Positions 21,476 through 31,519 of a stretch of DNA of 64,000 nt are shown here, in pieces (position 1 is the first letter of the stretch; every line of letters begins with the position of its first letter). This stretch comes from an uncultured bacterium (GTDB taxonomy: Bacteria; Babelota; Babeliae; Babelales; Vermiphilaceae), in NCBI GenBank assembly GCA_963702025.1, contig OY969699.1, positions 832,001-896,000 on the forward strand, given 5' to 3'. The notes under the pieces were generated by a model. It saw only the letters and a list, made by a program, of their open reading frames with translations. It was not told the DNA's origin and did not search any database. Both the position numbers and the translations under genes were made by a program.

Positions 21476-22207
21476 TTAGGCCACAATCTCTTGTCTAAGC
21501 TCTTCTGGCAGTAATTTTATTTGTTCAGCACTAAGTTTATCTTCATTAAAAATAATATATTTAATACAGAGTTTTTTAAGTGAAGGAACCCTTTGAAATC
21601 CATTCGGGCCATGAGCCACTTTGCCACCAACCATTGCCAACATTCCTAATCTATATAACTGATAGTTACAGCGCGGAGAACAATACGGAACTTTTAAAAA
21701 TTTCTCTACCAGTAACGCCAAAGTATCTTCAAAGGTAGTATTATTAGCATTATTCCCCAATTGTTTGCAAACCAATTCTAGATTACATTTATGCTTGGTA
21801 TGAAAAAGTTTAACAATGGAATCTTCTTTTTTATCTTTAACTACCGAATACGGTAAAAGTAATGGAACATAGTTGAAAAAAGGACCTGCTTTTTTTGGAT
21901 CTGTACTTTTGGCTCTCACCCTTACAAATGGATCTGAACGATCAAAAGTTAATAGCAGATCACAAGAATTTTTCATGTCACATAAACTACACATAACGTC
22001 CTCTCTGGTACCACATTGATAAAGCAAATAGTCATCCACTATGCTCAACTCTCCTTTAATGGTTGGATATGCAGTCGCTTCCATGTCCGCATTTTCTTGC
22101 AAATATTCAACAGGAGGCTGTGTATCCACATCAGGAATATTTGGCAGCATTGGCACTATTGCTGGAAAATATGCGGCAAACAAGAATACAAATACTATTT
22201 TCTTCAT
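21476..22207 (-). CDS. secreted protein, paralog family with C-terminal SOCS-box-like motif
   Basis: Signal peptide; shared core (YQCG, DPFV, LPYS, ELVC, HGPNGF); ends VPSLKKLCIKYI...IKLLPEELRQEI. Confidence 0.75.
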   Translation of the reverse strand: MKKIVFVFLFAAYFPAIVPMLPNIPDVDTQPPVEYLQENADMEATAYPTIKGELSIVDDYLLYQCGTREDVMCSLCDMKNSCDLLLTFDRSDPFVRVRAKSTDPKKAGPFFNYVPLLLPYSVVKDKKEDSIVKLFHTKHKCNLELVCKQLGNNANNTTFEDTLALLVEKFLKVPYCSPRCNYQLYRLGMLAMVGGKVAHGPNGFQRVPSLKKLCIKYIIFNEDKLSAEQIKLLPEELRQEIVA

Positions 22208-22222
22208 GACAATCTTCTTTTA

Positions 22223-23605
22223 TTACCACAACTTATAACTATATTTAGTTGGAAAATCTGTTTTAATATTATCGCTTCCACCATTACTCGGTGTAAGTAC
22301 GCGAACATGGTAGGGATTTTGATTGGCAGCATTTTCCAAATTTGTTTTTATTTCTTTTTCCAAAAATGCAAAAATTCGCTCAGTAAGATATCCAGTTATT
22401 AATCCTAGACGAATTAAATATTCAAAGTTATTTTTCAAAAATTTAACTGTGGCTGCATAAGATTTGTTCCCAAAGTATTCTTTGATAGTCACTGCACACA
22501 TACCTGCACAGGCTCCAAAGAGACAAAGCAAAAGTCGTTCCTTCTTGATACCCTTAAATGCGACTATATTACTTTTTGCCGCAAATGATTTGAGCCAAAA
22601 TAACATTTTTGCCAAAGAGGTTTGTTTGAAGATGATATTTTGGGGATTTAAAGGAGTATGGGCAGCATTCAGCAAAAGTTTTTTATATTGTGCCGGATTA
22701 TCAAGACAAACAGAAGCAAGAGGATTATTAGGTAGAGATATACGCTCAATATCTTCATCAATTTCTTTATTTGAAACTGACTCAATACCATTTTTACTTA
22801 AATAAATTGATTTCGAATGGGGAAAAACTTTTTTTAGTGCTTTCACACTAAATGTTTTGATAGGCTCATCAAAAATGTTTATTTGTTCAATCTGATCAAG
22901 AGGTAAAGATTGTCCAAACTCCTTAAGAACCTCTATTCCCTCTAACGATCTAATTTTTTTTGTAATTTTCAATGCTTTAGAAATCCTGGACAAAAAGAAA
23001 ATATTATAGTTATAGTTGTTTATAACCGAATCACCGAGAAAATTCTTCTTAAAAATTTCGAGCCAGTTTTCTTTTCCTTTTACATCAGCCATAAATTGAG
23101 TAAAATCCAGATAATAGGGCAAATTAATTGCAATCGTATCTTTTAATAAGCGTAAATCACTTAATCTCTGCAATTGCTCAATCTTTTGATTCTGTTCTTT
23201 TATTGCTTCAATCTCTTTTTCTAATGCCGTTACATTTTTTTGAACCGATGGGTATGCGCGATTGGCCAGAGCTTCACTGATATTTTCCGGCGCTTGCAAA
23301 AAGTCTGCCAATTCAAATAATTGAGTAAAAAGAGCCTCATTTTTTATTTGATCCAGATATTTTATATCATTGATGACCTTAATTAGCTCAGCAATATTTG
23401 ATGCTGTCATAAAAGCATTCGGCTTAAAACTGATTCTTTCACCGGCAGCAGCCTGTGGCTTGCAATGCTTTATAAAGTCGCAACATTTCAATGCTTCCTC
23501 TTGTTGTTCGGTAAGCTCAACGCTCGGTATTTCCATTGGATATGACATTGAGCAGTATGAAATCAAAAAAGATGCAAGTGCTATTTTTTTTATTACTTTT
23601 TTCAT
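22223..23605 (-). CDS. secreted protein with BTB/Skp1-like N-domain, LRR-like segment and C-terminal hydrophobic helices
   Basis: GGAGG RBS before ATG 23605; LFELADFLQ motif; SIYLSKNGIESV and RISLPNNPLASV are LRR-like. Confidence 0.7.
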   Translation of the reverse strand: MKKVIKKIALASFLISYCSMSYPMEIPSVELTEQQEEALKCCDFIKHCKPQAAAGERISFKPNAFMTASNIAELIKVINDIKYLDQIKNEALFTQLFELADFLQAPENISEALANRAYPSVQKNVTALEKEIEAIKEQNQKIEQLQRLSDLRLLKDTIAINLPYYLDFTQFMADVKGKENWLEIFKKNFLGDSVINNYNYNIFFLSRISKALKITKKIRSLEGIEVLKEFGQSLPLDQIEQINIFDEPIKTFSVKALKKVFPHSKSIYLSKNGIESVSNKEIDEDIERISLPNNPLASVCLDNPAQYKKLLLNAAHTPLNPQNIIFKQTSLAKMLFWLKSFAAKSNIVAFKGIKKERLLLCLFGACAGMCAVTIKEYFGNKSYAATVKFLKNNFEYLIRLGLITGYLTERIFAFLEKEIKTNLENAANQNPYHVRVLTPSNGGSDNIKTDFPTKYSYKLW

Positions 23606-23806
23606 GATAACCTCCAAATTATTTTATTATATTTATGGTTTTTGTTCATCTTTTGTCGATGGTTCAATCTGTTCTCGTAATTCTTCCGGCAACAATTTTA
23701 TTTGTGCTCGCTGCTCTGCGGTTAATTTGTCTTTATTAAACAGAATATATTTAATGCATGTATCTTTGAGTGAACCGGGAACTTTACCAAAGCCGTAGGG
23801 GCCATG
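23378..23806. repeat. ~430-bp direct repeat spanning a gene junction, copy 1
   Basis: Aligns with 24536..24964 at offset 1158, with long identical runs. Confidence 0.9.
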
Positions 23807-24763
23807 GACATAGAGCAGAGATTCTTTATCAAATGCCATAACCTTCAAAGCCTGTAATTTTTTCTCGCAATCTGAAGAATATCTTTGCGGATTTTTTAAA
23901 AATTCTTGTTTTAGTCTTTCAAGCGCATTTTCAAATGTTTCACTCGTATGCGCTTCGTCAAAGCTCGCTTGTTGACACGTAAGTTCTATTATACTCTGCT
24001 TCTGCAAATTAAAAATTCTCACCATATCATTTTCTTTTTTATCAGCAAGTAGGCAATAGGGCAAAAATAGTGGGAAATACCCCACTTTGGGGTGATGAAG
24101 GGTCATCCAGTCATCCGATTCAGGACTGCGCACAACTACTTGCACTAAAGGATCTGCCGGATTGCACGGTAACAAAAGATCATGGCGCTGCTTTAAATCA
24201 AAAAAACATTCGCCACACTGATATTGCAATTGCTTGGCAGTTATCTTAAGTGAACCTTTCACCGAGGGCAATGTATTTGCAGTGGTATCTTGCAAGTTTA
24301 ATAAATCAGCTAATTGCTCTGCTGTTTGTTTTTTTTCACTGTCAGTATTTGTTAATTCTTTCTCTAATTCTTTTATTCTCTCTTGCACAACGGGGCAAAT
24401 GCGTTCGGCAAGCGCTACTAAAATGCATTCTGGCGCGCACAAGAAGTTTGCCAATCGAAATAACTCGATGCACTGAGTATTATCTACGATTCGAAGAAAA
24501 GCGTAAGTATCCAAATATTTAACATCTTGAATCACTTTAATGAGCTCTTCAATATTTTTTGCTGTCATGAAAGAATTCGCTTTAAAACTGATTCTTTCAC
24601 CAGCAGCAGCCTGCGGCTTGCAATGTTTTATAAAGTCGCAACATTTCAATGCTTCCTCTTGCTGTTCAGTAAGCTCAACGCTGGGTATTTCCATGGGATA
24701 TGACATTGAGCAGTATGAAATCAAAAAAGATGCAAGTGCTATTTTTTTTATTACTTTTTTCAT
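23633..24763 (-). CDS. chimeric secreted protein: BTB/Skp1-like N-domain plus SOCS-box family C-half
   Basis: N-terminal ~60 aa identical to 22223..23605; C-half has YQCG, DPLV, LPYC, HGPYGFGKVPGSLKDTCIKYI..LLPEELREQI. Confidence 0.8.
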   Translation of the reverse strand: MKKVIKKIALASFLISYCSMSYPMEIPSVELTEQQEEALKCCDFIKHCKPQAAAGERISFKANSFMTAKNIEELIKVIQDVKYLDTYAFLRIVDNTQCIELFRLANFLCAPECILVALAERICPVVQERIKELEKELTNTDSEKKQTAEQLADLLNLQDTTANTLPSVKGSLKITAKQLQYQCGECFFDLKQRHDLLLPCNPADPLVQVVVRSPESDDWMTLHHPKVGYFPLFLPYCLLADKKENDMVRIFNLQKQSIIELTCQQASFDEAHTSETFENALERLKQEFLKNPQRYSSDCEKKLQALKVMAFDKESLLYVHGPYGFGKVPGSLKDTCIKYILFNKDKLTAEQRAQIKLLPEELREQIEPSTKDEQKP

Positions 24764-24964
24764 GATAACCTCCAAATTATTTTATTATATTTATGGTTTT
24801 TGTTCATCTTTTGTCGATGGTTCAACCTGTTCTCGTAATTCTTCCGGCAACAATTTTATTTGTTCACATTGTGCCGCACTTAATTTATGTTTATTAAAGA
24901 AAATATATTTAATGCACGTATCTTTGAGCGAATTGGGAACTTTACCAAATCCATATATACCGTG
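24536..24964. repeat. ~430-bp direct repeat, copy 2
   Basis: Aligns with 23378..23806. Confidence 0.9.
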
Positions 24965-25582
24965 CGCAAAAACAAAAGGATTTGTATCTACAATAGCCTC
25001 TTTAGCAGATTCTCTTTTTGCCACAATTTTTAATTTTTCCAAGGCTTTTTCGCAGGTGAACCGGGGATATGCAAATCGTAAAAAATGTTGTTTCATCGTC
25101 TCCAATCTCACCTCAAAAATAGGGTTTGTTAATGGTTGGTCATCGAAGGTGGAAGGAGATGGGATCATAAAACTGCTCGCCTTACATACTAACTCTAATA
25201 CACTATTAGTTTTGCTATCAAAAAGCCTAATAAGATCATTCTCTTTTTTGTTTGCAAGTAATGAATAAGGTAATTTGACTTGAAAAAATCCATTTAAATC
25301 GTGACTCAATCTAAATTCTAAGCTAACAAGAGGATCATCATTCTGCTTAAAAGACACATGATATCGGGAACTGTTTTTTTCATCAGTTTCACACAAACCA
25401 CATTGATATTCGATGCAATCATCAAGATACAACTCCCCTTTCACTACTGGATCGATGAGAGTTTGATTTTCCTTTTTTTCTGAAGTGGCACCATTATTAA
25501 GCTCAGGTTTTTCCATAGCAAAAGTGCTGCTAAAAGATACCGATAAGCCAAGTGCAAGTAACGTAGTATTTAATTTATTCAT
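24791..25582 (-). CDS. secreted protein, SOCS-box-like paralog family
   Basis: Signal peptide followed by MEK; YQCG, DPLV, LPYSLLA, ELVC, VPNSLKDTCIKYI..LLPEELREQV. Confidence 0.78.
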   Translation of the reverse strand: MNKLNTTLLALGLSVSFSSTFAMEKPELNNGATSEKKENQTLIDPVVKGELYLDDCIEYQCGLCETDEKNSSRYHVSFKQNDDPLVSLEFRLSHDLNGFFQVKLPYSLLANKKENDLIRLFDSKTNSVLELVCKASSFMIPSPSTFDDQPLTNPIFEVRLETMKQHFLRFAYPRFTCEKALEKLKIVAKRESAKEAIVDTNPFVFAHGIYGFGKVPNSLKDTCIKYIFFNKHKLSAAQCEQIKLLPEELREQVEPSTKDEQKP

Positions 25583-25586
25583 AAAG

Positions 25587-25782
25587 CCTCAAAATTATTT
25601 TATTATATTTATGTTTTTTGTTCATCTTTTGCCAATGGTTCAATCTGTTCTCTAAGCTCTTCCGGCAATAATTTTATTTGTGCTCGCTGCTCTGCAGTTA
25701 ATTTGTCTTTATTTAAGAAAATATATTTAATGCATGCATCTTTGAGTGAACTGGGGACTTTACCAAATCCATATGGACCGTG
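25587..25782. repeat. partial third copy of the junction repeat
   Basis: aaattattttattatatttatg...ttcatctttt...tcttccggcaa...actttaccaaa matches ~23615..23806 and ~24773..24964. Confidence 0.85.
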
Positions 25783-26355
25783 GCTTATTGATGTACCTTC
25801 TTGTGCTAAAATCTTTAATTTTAACAACAACTCCCCTTGGCACCAAGCGCCTAATTTTGCTCTATTTAAAAATTCTTGTTTTTTAATTTTTAAGCATTCT
25901 TCAAATGATTGCCAATTATGCCAATTATTATTACCACTGCAAACCAATTCAAAACAACAGTTCTCCTTATCATTAAAGAATCGAACAATATCATTTTGTT
26001 TTTTATCTGCGAGCAAAGAATAAGGCAAATACCGGGGAATTCCATTGTCCGTTCCAACAATACATTTTGTTATAGGTACAACTGGATCATGCGGCTGGTA
26101 TAACAACGAATAATTAGAGGTTAAATTTTTCTCATCCCATCGGCATTTGCCACATTCATAAATAATACTGTCTTGAAGACAAATACGCAGCTCCCCTTCT
26201 ATAATCTTCGGTCCAACTGCTATTAATACTGCTTCTTTCATATCTTGTGTTTTTGAAATTGCAGTTTTTGCCTCAGGCAGTTCCATAGCACCTATAGTTG
26301 CCAAAGTTCCCAACAAGCTCATCGCCAAAGACATTTTATTTAATCTATTCATCAA
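25609..26355 (-). CDS. secreted protein, SOCS-box-like paralog family
   Basis: Signal peptide followed by MEL; YECG, DPVV, LPYSLLA, ELVC, VPSSLKDACIKYI..LLPEELREQI. Confidence 0.78.
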   Translation of the reverse strand: MMNRLNKMSLAMSLLGTLATIGAMELPEAKTAISKTQDMKEAVLIAVGPKIIEGELRICLQDSIIYECGKCRWDEKNLTSNYSLLYQPHDPVVPITKCIVGTDNGIPRYLPYSLLADKKQNDIVRFFNDKENCCFELVCSGNNNWHNWQSFEECLKIKKQEFLNRAKLGAWCQGELLLKLKILAQEGTSISHGPYGFGKVPSSLKDACIKYIFLNKDKLTAEQRAQIKLLPEELREQIEPLAKDEQKT

Positions 26356-27334: not shown

Positions 27335-28654
27335 TCATATCTCAATCGTCAACAATTCCTGCCAACTCGTGGTAAAACGAGCCGATCTTTTCTCAACTTT
27401 CGTTTTCCAGGGATGATCAACGCCCGTTGCGGCAAAGGTCACCGTTTCATTGCCCCATTTGGTAGTAATATGATCCATGGTGGTCATCATGCGAGCTTGT
27501 TTGCTAATATCCTTATCCATCTGGCTCATAGTGAGCTGCAGATTGTCCGCATCAGTAATATCATTGAGCATAATGCCCACTTTTTTATAGATAAGGCCCT
27601 TTTTAAATACAATATCAATGCATGCTTTAACGGCACTAATTATTGCGGGCGTATATGATGTGGCTTGCGGCAATTGTATGCTGGCACTTTTATAATAGCG
27701 CTGAGGATCATCGTAACTTCTAACCAATACAAAAGCAGATACATGCGAGGCTACAAGTTTTTGTTTGCGTAATTTGCGCGCACCGCTGGTTGCATGCACC
27801 GATGCCGCTTGCTTTAAATGAGTGATATTTGTTATCGGTTTGCCAAATGAGCGGGAGACCACAAAGCTTTTATTCGGCTCAATTTCTTGATCGATGGCAA
27901 AACAGGGAATGCCGCGCAATTCGTGCACCATTCGTAACCCATTAATGGTCATCTTTTTGCGTGCCCACGCGTCAGGGGCATATTTAAGGGCCTTTGCCGT
28001 GGTTATCTTATGGGCAATTAACATTTTTTCATAACGGCGACCAACGCCCCAAATATCGCCGACAGGAACTTTTTCAAGCAGTTCATCAACGTCAGCACGA
28101 TCGGTGATGTCAAAATAACCACCCAATGTCGGATTTTTCTTTGCAATTTTATTGGCAACTTTAGCAAGTGTTTTGGTTGGTGCAATGCCAATAGAAATAG
28201 GAATACCCGTATACTGTTTAACTTTACGAATTAATAATTGAGAGCGCGCGGCGAAATAATCGGGATCTTGCTCGTGACCATAATCAACAATATGTAAAAA
28301 TGCTTCATCAACCGAATAGACTTCAATATCAGCAGCCTCTTGAGCAAGCGTTTGCATGACGCGGGAAGACATATCGCCGTAGAGTGAAAAATTGGATGAA
28401 AAAACATGCACCTTATGTTTTTTAAAAAACGGCTCATATTGAAAGGCCGGTGCGCCCATGGGAATTTCTAATGCCTTGGCTTCATTAGAACGCGCGATAA
28501 CACAGCCATCGTTACTGGAAAGCACCACAACCGGCTTGCCAATCAATGTTGGATCAAATACGCGTTCACACGAAACAAAAAAATTATTGCAATCAACCAG
28601 CAATATTCGTTTAGGTTTGCCGGATAATATAGGTGACGACACCCCACACCTCAA
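27335..28654 (-). CDS. umuC: Y-family DNA polymerase V subunit UmuC (true start probably TTG near 28604)
   Basis: LVDCNNFFVSCERVF, VLSSNDGCVIARS, FSSNFSLYGDMSSRV, YSVDEAF, TKTLAKVAN, VWG-like IWGVG, C-terminal RFTTSW. Confidence 0.93.
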   Translation of the reverse strand: MRCGVSSPILSGKPKRILLVDCNNFFVSCERVFDPTLIGKPVVVLSSNDGCVIARSNEAKALEIPMGAPAFQYEPFFKKHKVHVFSSNFSLYGDMSSRVMQTLAQEAADIEVYSVDEAFLHIVDYGHEQDPDYFAARSQLLIRKVKQYTGIPISIGIAPTKTLAKVANKIAKKNPTLGGYFDITDRADVDELLEKVPVGDIWGVGRRYEKMLIAHKITTAKALKYAPDAWARKKMTINGLRMVHELRGIPCFAIDQEIEPNKSFVVSRSFGKPITNITHLKQAASVHATSGARKLRKQKLVASHVSAFVLVRSYDDPQRYYKSASIQLPQATSYTPAIISAVKACIDIVFKKGLIYKKVGIMLNDITDADNLQLTMSQMDKDISKQARMMTTMDHITTKWGNETVTFAATGVDHPWKTKVEKRSARFTTSWQELLTIEI

Positions 28655-28988
28655 AATCTCTATCAGCAGTAATGGTTAAGGGTTCATTATTCTTTCCATC
28701 TCCCAATAAGATTAACGCATCGGGCGCAATCTGTACACGCCGCACCAACAATTGGCCATCCAAACGGGCAATAATAATTGTATGATTAGAAAGAGAAAGT
28801 GAGCGATCAACCACCAAAATATCGTTGGACCAAATCCCTTCATCGAGCATTGTATCGCCCTTCACGCGCACAAAAAAAGTGGCTGCCGGATGTTGGATAA
28901 TCAGTTCATTTAAATCAAGCGAGAGAGAAAAATCATTTTCGGCCCAGGAATGGAAACGGGTAGATACGGAAATTTTTTTGTTATTCAT
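28611..28988 (-). CDS. umuD: UmuD-like S24-family protein with non-canonical catalytic residues
   Basis: LDLNELIIQHPAATFFVRVKGDTM..GI...DILVVDRS, VWGVVTYII; directly upstream of umuC. Confidence 0.88.
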   Translation of the reverse strand: MNNKKISVSTRFHSWAENDFSLSLDLNELIIQHPAATFFVRVKGDTMLDEGIWSNDILVVDRSLSLSNHTIIIARLDGQLLVRRVQIAPDALILLGDGKNNEPLTITADRDFEVWGVVTYIIRQT

Positions 28989-29144: not shown

Positions 29145-30472
29145 CAATACTCCGGACAGTTTTAACATCTAATCATCCCGAATTTAATTGCACTTTTTAA
29201 CCCTGGATCGAATTTTATTAAATTCGGGTCCAATCCTAACTTTGAAATAATCTGTTTTGTGAGCATTTCATTGTAGTTTTTGCGCTTATGACTTGCCATG
29301 GAAAAAGGAACTTTTTCCGGCAAGCTTTTCTTGGCTTCAACCTCCTGAACCTTGGCTATTGTAAGAGCGGAAAAAGAGGCATTAAAGTGATGATTGAGCT
29401 TTTCTTTGCTGCGCGCTTGAGATTCGGTAAGTCCTGTAAATTGTTTCGCATCACGAAAAACAAACTCAATTTGAAAACGTGCCTTGTAAAAGTCATAAAT
29501 ATCACGCGCGCTTAACGAAAAATCTGTTGAAAAAAGAAGACAAATAGATTCTTTGTTTTTAACACATACAACTCGAACCGTTCGCTTAAGACTTATGCTG
29601 TAATAATCAGCAAAATACAATGAAATGTGTTCATCAATTTTATCTGAAAAATTAAAATTGCTGAGATCTTTTACATCAACTTTCTTTCCGTACTTTCTTG
29701 GCCTTCCGCGACCTCTATTTTGCTCAAAAACTAAATATCGTAAATTAGCATCAGATCGCAATCGACTTATTACATGATAATTATCAGATCTCATCGCCGA
29801 TACAAATTGTTCTTTTGCAAAATAAGCATCACAAACTAAAAACTTTATATCAAATTTTTCTTTGATTTTGGGAAGCTGCCCTTGAAGGCTATGAATATAA
29901 AAATTGATTCGAGTTGCATCAGATTTGCCAATTATTTGAACAATTTCATCTTTTGGTGGTGTTTGCTGAACAGAAAGCGGATATCCAATATTTTCGTCAA
30001 CATCGATTAATGCTAGCCCGCTTGCCTCTAATCCTTTTTCAGATTTGCTTTGTGAACCATTCCAGAATGATTCTCTACCGTAAGTTTTTTTGCCTGATTT
30101 TTCTATGAAAAATGGATCAAATGCCAAGATCAGTCGCTTTTCTTGAATGATTATTCTTTTCACCGCAATGAGGTTGAATTGAAGATAATCAAAGCATTTA
30201 GCAAAGTTTCGAGAAAAAGTTTTTTCGCTCATATCAGCATATCTAGCCATGTTGGCAAAATTTACGCGACCAGCCATCGAAAGTATCGTGCTCATCAGGT
30301 CATTTACAAACTTTTTTTGAGGTTTCGAAATTTTTGTCATTTTTTCCAAAATTTCCTGTATAATTTTCATTGCCGCATTTCCCTTTTTTGAGGAAGTTTG
30401 ATTGACTCCCACTAATTATGGATATGCGGCCTAAACTTTCAAGTCACTTTCAAAAAACTGTCCGAACTATTG
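29145..30472 (-). mobile_element. insertion sequence (IS4/IS701-like DDE), 1328 bp
   Basis: TIRs caatactccggacagttt / aaactgtccgaactattg (16/18); 7-bp TSD acaggag at 29138..29144 and 30473..30479. Confidence 0.92.
29162..30370 (-). CDS. DDE transposase
   Basis: LAFDPFFIEKSGKKT, VCDAYF, ISRLRSDA, GRGRPRKYG, YKARFQIEFVFRDAKQFTGL. Confidence 0.9.
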   Translation of the reverse strand: MKIIQEILEKMTKISKPQKKFVNDLMSTILSMAGRVNFANMARYADMSEKTFSRNFAKCFDYLQFNLIAVKRIIIQEKRLILAFDPFFIEKSGKKTYGRESFWNGSQSKSEKGLEASGLALIDVDENIGYPLSVQQTPPKDEIVQIIGKSDATRINFYIHSLQGQLPKIKEKFDIKFLVCDAYFAKEQFVSAMRSDNYHVISRLRSDANLRYLVFEQNRGRGRPRKYGKKVDVKDLSNFNFSDKIDEHISLYFADYYSISLKRTVRVVCVKNKESICLLFSTDFSLSARDIYDFYKARFQIEFVFRDAKQFTGLTESQARSKEKLNHHFNASFSALTIAKVQEVEAKKSLPEKVPFSMASHKRKNYNEMLTKQIISKLGLDPNLIKFDPGLKSAIKFGMIRC

Positions 30473-30510
30473 ACAGGAGAATTTATCCGAAAACTATTAT
30501 AAGGACCCTT

Positions 30511-30810
30511 ATGTCACCCCAAATAAATCCTGATGACAAAAAAGAAGTTATTCATGCAGTGGAATACCATTATCCCGATGCAAAAATAATTCTGTTTGGA
30601 TCACGTGCCCATGGAAAAGCAAAAGAGGGTTCCGATATTGATATTGCAATTGATATCGGCGAACCTATCCCGTTGCATGAAATGTCGCGTATACGAACTA
30701 CAATGGAAAACTTAACAATACCATTAATGGTGGATGTCGTTGATATGCAACGCATACCCGAAGAATTCAAGCAGATAATTTTGAAACATGGTATTGTATG
30801 GAAAAATTAA
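30511..30810 (+). CDS. minimal nucleotidyltransferase (MNT/MntA-type antitoxin)
   Basis: ILFGSRAHG...SDIDIAID, VDVVD; AAGGA RBS before ATG 30511 (the longer ORF-track start lies inside the IS). Confidence 0.88.
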   Translation: MSPQINPDDKKEVIHAVEYHYPDAKIILFGSRAHGKAKEGSDIDIAIDIGEPIPLHEMSRIRTTMENLTIPLMVDVVDMQRIPEEFKQIILKHGIVWKN

Positions 30811-31268
30811 AAATATCACTCCATTCTCTCAATAAAGCATTAAAAACCTTAGATTCTTCGCTTATCACATTACAAAAAGCAAAAGATTTAAAAATTGAAG
30901 AATTTATCTTGGCAAGTCAAGATTCAGTTATTCAAAGGTTCGAATATTGCTATGAAGGATTTTGGAAATTTTTAAAACAATATTTAGAAAAAACACACAA
31001 CATAGAAACTGAAGAAATAAAAAGTCCCAAAAAAGTTTTTCGCTACGGTGTTAAAATAAGAATTTGCTCTGAACAAGAAGGGAAAATACTTATCCAAATG
31101 TCAAATTCTCGTAATGCAACTTCTCACACCTATAGCCTCGAAGAAGTGCATGCAATCTTACCCAATATTCCTCTCTATCACGAATGCATGTTAAAGATAC
31201 GTGATCGTATTATAACAGCCATTAGGCACACCCAGACATGTGATGAAATTCATAACTTATTAAACTAG
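30798..31268 (+). CDS. HEPN-domain protein (HI0074-like, HepT-type toxin)
   Basis: IQRFEYCYE..WK, SPKKVFR, intact RX4HXY motif RNATSHTY; overlaps the MNT gene. Confidence 0.86.
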   Translation: MEKLKISLHSLNKALKTLDSSLITLQKAKDLKIEEFILASQDSVIQRFEYCYEGFWKFLKQYLEKTHNIETEEIKSPKKVFRYGVKIRICSEQEGKILIQMSNSRNATSHTYSLEEVHAILPNIPLYHECMLKIRDRIITAIRHTQTCDEIHNLLN

Positions 31269-31519
31269 AGCTGTTGCATCGGATCCATTAATCGATTGGG
31301 TAATTTTTTTATATTACTCACCAAGTGATTTTTTTCAAAATAGCGCATCAAATCCAAAAATTCCTGTTCTCGTGCCGGCGTCACATAAAATTCAAAAAGA
31401 TTTGTATGCGAATCAAGGGTGCGGTCAAAGGCGAGATGTTCATAACTTTTTAAAATGGCAACCACATACCAACAAAATGTTTTATCAACATACGAATGAT
31501 AGTAAGGACAATAATTCAT
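31265..31519 (-). CDS. small hypothetical protein (DUF4911-like)
   Basis: ILKSYEHLAFDRTLD...FEFYVTP pattern. Confidence 0.55.
   Translation of the reverse strand: MNYCPYYHSYVDKTFCWYVVAILKSYEHLAFDRTLDSHTNLFEFYVTPAREQEFLDLMRYFEKNHLVSNIKKLPNRLMDPMQQL

Follow-up and report, generated by a model that had tools for sequence, protein, structure and literature searches.

A UmuD variant lacking the self-cleavage residues is conserved beside an intact umuC in a lineage of Babeliales

UmuD, LexA, and CI are autoproteolytic S24 peptidases, in which a Ser-Lys dyad (Ser60 and Lys97 in Escherichia coli UmuD) cleaves an Ala-Gly or Cys-Gly bond (Cys24-Gly25). Mutagenesis by E. coli UmuC needs binding of the cleaved form, UmuD', and armless UmuD' is non-mutagenic (PMC11791011). 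Full-length UmuD also binds UmuC, forming the non-catalytic complex UmuD2C (PMC5342242), and RecA-ATP is a required subunit of DNA polymerase V (Pol V; PMC4552617). Phage P1 HumD is a natural, already activated form of UmuD that requires no cleavage (PMC7092418). Non-cleavable forms of E. coli UmuD (UmuD 3A, UmuD 18, and UmuD 8 S60A) have been engineered. In UmuD 3A and UmuD 18 the arm-docking residues are missing and the conformation resembles that of UmuD'; variants without Leu17/Phe18 assume an arms-up, UmuD'-like state. Uncleaved UmuD 18 supports little mutagenesis, and with UmuD 8 S60A mutagenesis is greatly reduced (PMC5342242). The Bacillus polymerases YqjW/UvrX employ small accessory subunits that are not UmuD, YqjX/YolD (PMC12926913, PMC6511836), whose N-terminal arm is modelled as inserted into the Y-family polymerase (PMC12926913).

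In a 64,000-nt stretch of the genome of an uncultured Babeliales bacterium, hereafter the window, a umuD gene (28611..28988, minus strand) precedes umuC (27335..28642, minus strand), as in E. coli. Its 125-residue product matches Pfam Peptidase_S24 (PF00717, 64 bits) and scores 112.8 against the NCBIfam UmuD model PRK10276, just above the cut-off of 110. The score against LexA models is well below the cut-offs, and the cut-off of 120 of the HumD family NF051876 is not reached (59.2 bits; 39–71 bits for five relatives). An AlphaFold2 monomer model has the S24 fold, with low confidence at residues 10–19, and its best Foldseek matches are the UmuD structures 1umu, 8gmt, and 1ay9. The protein has an S24 C-terminal domain in both sequence and fold and no DNA-binding domain, indicating that it belongs to the UmuD family. 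It shares ~39% identity, the conserved core, and the C-terminal strand with E. coli UmuD/UmuD', and UmuC-tail binding is predicted here as well.

The protein aligns without gaps with E. coli UmuD (PDB 8gmt_B and 1umu_A) over residues 12 (Phe26 in E. coli) to ~91, the numbering being shifted by 14. Thr46 (28851..28853, minus strand) occupies the position of the nucleophile Ser60, and Arg83 (28740..28742, minus strand) that of the general base Lys97. Ungapped extension, together with an alignment with Enterobacter UmuD, places Thr10-Arg11 at Cys24-Gly25. The loss of all three determinants, proposed in a first-pass annotation made from the sequence alone, is borne out by this alignment. The same annotation had described an N-terminal arm of about 10 residues; in agreement, three codons precede the ATG, an in-frame stop lies 4 codons upstream of it, and the open frame encodes 128 residues. 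Neither the Ser-Lys dyad nor an Ala-Gly or Cys-Gly scissile bond is present, the latter being Thr-Arg in 48 of 48 homologs and Thr-Ser in genus g43. Judged from these residues, the protein, here called dead UmuD, cannot plausibly self-cleave and falls outside both the autoproteolytic S24 peptidases and the HumD family. The profile annotation 'autoproteolytic subunit' is therefore a mislabel for such proteins.

Compared with E. coli UmuD, dead UmuD lacks the dyad, the cleavage site, and LexA control, and its arm, with 10 residues ahead of the old scissile bond, is 14 residues shorter than that of UmuD and 10 longer than that of UmuD', with a rewritten sequence. Unlike HumD, it is chromosomal, has its own umuC, appears to derive from cleavable Babeliales UmuD, and keeps residues upstream of the scissile bond. 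The engineered variants share its lack of cleavage but are laboratory-made, with no newly selected arm motif and no co-evolved UmuC, and UmuD 18 is weakly mutagenic (PMC5342242). YqjX/YolD belong to a distinct sequence family and are modelled as monomers (PMC12926913, PMC6511836), whereas dead UmuD is truly homologous to UmuD and was modelled as a dimer. The nearest relatives, canonical Babeliales UmuD proteins, are 45–57% identical and have the same operon layout, but keep Ser, Lys, and Ala-Gly and have a longer arm, with 15–51 residues (median 33.5) before the bond.

The dead form is widespread among close homologs. In a protein search, the best 120 of 1308 matches were examined, and the first 48 (query included) constitute the dead group. 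None of these 48 homolog clusters keeps Ser and Lys together (37 lack both, 7 keep Lys only, and 4 keep Ser only), whereas Ser, Lys, and Ala-Gly are all kept in the 72 next-ranked matches. The N-terminus is short in 46 of the 48, with 8–13 residues up to the old scissile position, and the named relatives are Candidatus Babeliales or Dependentiae. The residue at the nucleophile position is A in 17, G in 17, T in 5, S in 4, H in 2, and M in 1, with a gap in 2, indicating that the position drifts and that Thr in the window's protein is incidental. Loss of the dyad is thus common to the orthologs, as the first-pass annotation had expected, but its description of the loss as conservative is wrong, as the position is mostly A or G, and the Ser-to-Thr change of its proposed T/R signature is not conserved.

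Within the phylum, umuD matches occur in 51 of 261 genomes. With a LexA (G159) and a weak match (G248) left out, the reading covered 50 loci in 49 genomes. Of these loci, 38 are canonical and intact, 9 are of the dead type (7 in the window's genus and 2 in genus g43), and 3 are others. The dead umuD is adjoined by umuC in the window, in all 7 genus genomes with a match, and in 2 of g43. A profile search adds P0125 as a further, divergent dead-type member. Irregular loci were also seen: L040 (G233:C35) has Ala-Arg at the cleavage site in a genome in which no umuC tail was found, and is probably a decaying orphan; G186 (L010) has frameshifts in umuD and umuC, and G245 (L035) an early umuD stop at a G run, both of which may be explained by assembly errors or decay. 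The arm shared by 48 homolog clusters rules out sequencing error or chance for the group, and on this survey dead umuD is a lineage trait and not a decaying copy.

The gene is also constrained. By the Nei-Gojobori method, with values that are rough since many dS are near saturation, dead-type umuD has a dN/dS of 0.056–0.169 (36 of 36 pairs, 9 loci), the g43 pair ~0.12, canonical umuD 0.031–0.202 in 42 of 48 pairs (6 pairs are saturated), and partner umuC 0.056–0.235 in 16 of 21 pairs. The closest dead-type pair has a dS of 0.13 and a dN of 0.007. The dead-type range of 0.06–0.17, far below 1 and similar to that of canonical umuD, indicates the purifying selection on orthologs that the first-pass annotation had named as a check.

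The arm carries a new motif, TRFHSWA (Thr10–Ala16; 28941..28961, minus strand), which lies at the cleavage-site region (Cys24/Gly25–Ala30). All 7 positions are invariant in the 48 homologs among the best 120 of 1308 matches. Genus g43 reads TSFHSWA (2 loci); the two genera thus differ at the Gly25 position, with Arg in the window's genus and Ser in g43, and P0125 has Asn in place of His13. The arm-docking positions of E. coli Leu17 and Phe18 are N/D and K/R in most of the 48, but hydrophobic in nearly all 72 canonical matches. The arm codons vary synonymously in 9 loci; therefore, the constraint acts at the protein level, and a DNA element was rejected as an explanation of the motif.

The region coincides in part with the former RecA interface. 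In the RecA–UmuD structure, a pocket formed in part by UmuD Phe18 and needed for cleavage receives RecA Phe203, and UmuD residues Asp91/Glu93, Phe26, and Pro29 make further contacts (PMC9926225). Phe26 and Pro29 correspond to the invariant Phe12 and Trp15 of dead UmuD. The Glu93 position is Gln in 72% of 47 dead-type homologs, and Thr95 is lost as well, so that, as read from the alignment, the features serving cleavage have decayed together. In models of Pol V from the literature, one UmuD' arm lies near the UmuC active site and DNA, and a single N-terminal residue change in UmuD' has a pronounced effect (PMC11791011). Such a position would explain why the arm stays invariant although the protein is no longer cleaved.

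The adjoining umuC encodes an intact Y-family polymerase, as first annotated, with the first catalytic Asp (28592..28594, minus strand) and the catalytic Asp-Glu of the SxDE motif (28304..28309, minus strand). The C-terminal DUF4113 tail, the UmuD'-binding region, is at 27344..27493 (minus strand). Catalytic acidic residues, a clamp-type motif, a RecA-NT-type segment, and the tail are all present, as in UmuC of a Pol V mutasome; the clamp-type and RecA-NT-type segments were recognised by eye and are thus probable assignments. The score of 350 against PRK03609 is below the cut-off of 431. At one finger-region position (28466..28468, minus strand), 34 of 35 other Babeliales UmuC proteins have Gly, whereas 8 of 8 partners of dead UmuD have E, D, A, or Q, a replacement that could mean altered or reduced UmuC activity.

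The umuC gene overlaps the 3' end of umuD. Its longest open reading frame begins with TTG at 28654, and the overlap contains no ATG. The place of the ATG reads ATA in 8 of 12 dead-type umuC loci, all 8 of which have an open frame with a GTG four codons earlier, whereas the other 4 have ATG and a stop just upstream. Because these features covary across the 12 loci, the GTG at 28642 is the probable start. The start thus seems to have shifted from ATG to the upstream GTG (window 28630–28642) in 8 of 12 loci, with the upstream in-frame stop lost alongside.

A complex of UmuC with two UmuD copies was predicted with a score of 0.82, compared with 0.01 for the best control. Among solved complexes, 116 of 157 reach the mark for this score, and among mismatched pairs 2 of 215, although these figures apply only roughly here; the likeness to UmuD' dimers that are already solved may contribute to the score. 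Contact agreement between runs is at least 51% and partner pLDDT at least 74. No UmuC chain is among 55 PDB matches. The predicted interface comprises UmuC tail residues 413–425 and UmuD residues 33–47, 62–63, and 78–82. Thus, dead UmuD is predicted to bind UmuC as a dimer, with the UmuC C-terminal tail packed on the edge of the UmuD β-sheet as in published Pol V models. Arm residues 10–16 are absent from the confident contacts, and their pLDDT in the monomer model is below 50. Since full-length UmuD forms a non-catalytic complex with UmuC too, predicted binding fits an active and an inhibited polymerase alike.

The genome of the window (G000, 95% complete) encodes a single UmuD and a single Y-family polymerase and has an intact recA, and no LexA DNA-binding domain was found in it; the first-pass annotation had suggested looking for lexA and recA. 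The operon accordingly lacks the LexA repression that is part of the Pol V mutasome definition. Among the 261 phylum genomes, lexA scores above cut-off in 2, neither of which carries umuC, and the UmuC tail is found in 48, all of them also in the umuD list. Loss of LexA was rejected as the cause of the dead form because it is non-specific: phylum genomes with canonical umuD lack LexA as well. A search of 6 further genomes of the genus and 2 of g43 found recA in every one. The L2 Phe and most of the groove residues are retained in its product. Co-evolution of RecA was rejected, because an L2-loop Pro, the candidate change, is shared by 18 of 45 RecA rows, many of them from genomes that lack umuDC. 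A dedicated operator or promoter was likewise rejected: a consensus scan gave 12 sites, compared with 16.4 expected, and inspection of 13 upstream regions by eye revealed no motif in common.

The only other S24 protein of G000 is a helix-turn-helix (HTH)-S24, CI/LexA-like regulator (G000:C1:486712-487386; L002 1120–1797), encoded between rnhB-like and ribosomal protein genes. It lacks both Ser and the Ala-Gly site, and there is no second UmuD; cleavage in trans by a partner was rejected for these reasons. HTH-S24 proteins without Ser or Ala-Gly occur in 121 of 121 phylum genomes searched (best matches 59–90% identical, sometimes two copies), and may represent a phylum-wide non-cleavable regulator.

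The surroundings of the operon are variable. An IS701/IS4-like element (29145..30472, minus strand), which has terminal inverted repeats of 19 nt and is flanked by a 7-nt repeat, ends 156 nt upstream of the umuD ATG and leaves the coding region untouched. A truncation of umuD by this element was rejected on these grounds and is also contradicted by relatives that have other upstream DNA and the same short start. A second, identical copy (G000:C1:1553899-1555226) suggests recent transposition. A DUF4911-like gene (31265..31519, minus strand) lies directly upstream of umuD in several relatives; in the window, the element and a MNT/HEPN-type nucleotidyltransferase pair (30418–31268) lie between the two, and homologs of the pair occupy the same place in G184, G185, and G188. 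Downstream of umuC (21476–26355) is a run of paralogous open reading frames with signal-like N-termini and a common C-terminal segment; the one member scanned has no Pfam match.

In a tree from all alignment columns, the dead forms make up one clade (21 rows, support 98/89) inside canonical Babeliales UmuD. Without the arm and catalytic columns, the two genera are not joined (4% of bootstrap trees). They group together in 5% in the UmuC tree, for which a joint grouping is not rejected (AU p 0.336). The DUF4911-like gene was found near umuD only in dead-type loci, with the canonical loci covered by flanks of just 1.5–2.5 kb. By a conserved host protein, g43 is nearest to G000 among 121 genomes. 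A single origin of the dead forms in both genera is likely on account of the DUF4911-like neighbour, this closeness of g43 and G000, and the replacement of the UmuC Gly in 8 of 8 partners.

We consider it reasonably probable that dead UmuD is a born-active equivalent of UmuD', in a Pol V that would still need RecA-ATP. As a dimer, dead UmuD would associate with the adjacent UmuC and serve in place of UmuD' from the outset, Pol V would assemble without proteolysis, and RecA-ATP loading would be the sole on-switch. TRFHSWA would be a rewritten UmuD' arm, inserting near the UmuC active site and DNA despite 9–10 extra residues. As Pol V needs RecA-ATP, skipping cleavage would leave one damage gate; restraint would come from the availability of RecA*, and perhaps from weak translation of umuC from its GTG start. 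Independence from cleavage should not be equated with independence from RecA, because UmuC keeps a RecA-binding-type tail, recA is intact, and Pol V requires RecA-ATP. The first-pass annotation had proposed a UmuD'-like subunit that needs no cleavage. That part stands insofar as self-cleavage is implausible, the orthologs are under purifying selection, and UmuC binding is predicted. Simple mimicry of UmuD' does not, as some 9–10 residues are kept before the old scissile bond and the invariant arm motif is new. Several observations count against a born-active subunit. Uncleaved E. coli variants are poorly mutagenic, and the length of the arm falls between those of UmuD 18 and UmuD 8. Gly25 is replaced by Arg and preceded by an extension, in a region where single changes already matter for UmuD'. 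Full-length UmuD binds UmuC in a non-catalytic complex, the arm is absent from the confident contacts of the predicted complex, and the replaced UmuC Gly could point to altered or reduced activity.

The conservation of the arm could also reflect a reversible latch, which we regard as unlikely but as the main rival: the uncleaved arm, held in the dead active-site cleft or on UmuC, would keep Pol V off until a RecA filament swings it out uncut, making activation allosteric as well as reversible. An arm invariant at 7 of 7 positions in 48 homologs is more conserved than a loose tail requires, the RecA-touching Phe26 and Pro29 have invariant counterparts in Phe12 and Trp15, RecA retains the L2 Phe and most groove residues, and a damage gate would be useful in umuC-bearing genomes of a phylum without LexA in them. 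However, the Phe18 contact is gone and Glu93 is Gln in most homologs, which weakens a cleavage-type RecA interface; contact with UmuC explains the conservation of the arm equally well; and no lineage-specific RecA change was found. It is unlikely, in our estimate, that a reversible switch has taken over from the irreversible proteolytic one, with RecA filaments moving an uncleavable TRFHSWA latch back and forth between the inactive peptidase cleft and the active site of UmuC. The predicted complex is likewise compatible with a non-catalytic, UmuD2C-like assembly in which dead UmuD protects or restrains a UmuC that works weakly alone or on release, and non-cleavable E. coli UmuD is indeed non-mutagenic, as UmuD2C is non-catalytic (PMC5342242). 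Such an inhibitor or stabiliser, the alternative already raised by the first-pass annotation, is improbable, given that the genome has no other UmuD as activator and yet keeps the UmuC catalytic residues and purifying selection, and that mutagenesis by E. coli UmuC depends on UmuD' (PMC11791011).

Trimming of the arm by another protease, cellular or of the host, would turn the invariant motif, which sits exactly at the old cleavage site, into a recognition site. This is still less probable: the Gly25 position differs between the genera, His13 is replaced in P0125, the genome has no active S24 peptidase, and no candidate protease was identified. It is hardly credible that the gene is decaying because selection has relaxed, or that a Thr/Arg dyad still allows some self-cleavage. 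The operon is patchy (48 of 261 genomes), umuD and umuC are both frameshifted in G186, and neither is present in G187, which belongs to the same genus; against this stand canonical-like dN/dS values far below 1, and Ala or Gly at the nucleophile position in 34 of 48 homologs leaves no shared chemistry for cleavage. On the dN/dS and homolog data, decay is excluded.

Dead UmuD-like domains are not rare by sequence. Of 172 domain alignments, 46 lack Ser or Lys, although this figure takes in the query, some partial alignments, and tandem halves, and is biased by the query profile. L074 (labelled Ignavibacteriales) and L064 encode short-armed UmuD proteins with Asn at the nucleophile position beside umuC, and by sequence represent an independent loss outside the Babeliales phylum. 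In other Babeliales families, armless UmuD adjoins umuC in L033 (G094:C9), which keeps Ser and Lys in a genome with a second, canonical operon, and in L052 (G105:C16), which has Asn for Lys; both are possible independent HumD-like forms. Tandem UmuD-UmuD proteins of ~220–300 residues were also seen (P0122–P0124, P0126, P0127, P0130–P0133, P0139–P0142, and others), many of which pair a catalytically dead first domain carrying the cleavage site with a second domain that is active, resembling a heterodimer in one chain.

No description of this dead-UmuD variant was found in the literature searched, and passages of PMC8565304 and PMC4713147 contribute nothing on it; the supplements of PMC11791011 and PMC12926913 may list such forms. 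The HumD precedent and the recurrence of dead UmuD-like proteins temper the novelty. By its residues and operon, the dead UmuD–UmuC pair would represent a new variant of Pol V. Cleavage of UmuD is treated as required for Pol V activation, and this lineage offers dozens of natural, selected UmuD–UmuC pairs that appear uncuttable. These pairs, in which the arm is new and invariant and UmuC has changed correspondingly in at least one position, bear on why a few extra arm residues block Pol V. If the reversible latch were true, it would run in bacteria without LexA or any working S24 peptidase. More broadly, the pairs indicate how the sole translesion polymerase may be run in LexA-less bacteria of a phylum with a parasitic background (PMC6561590).
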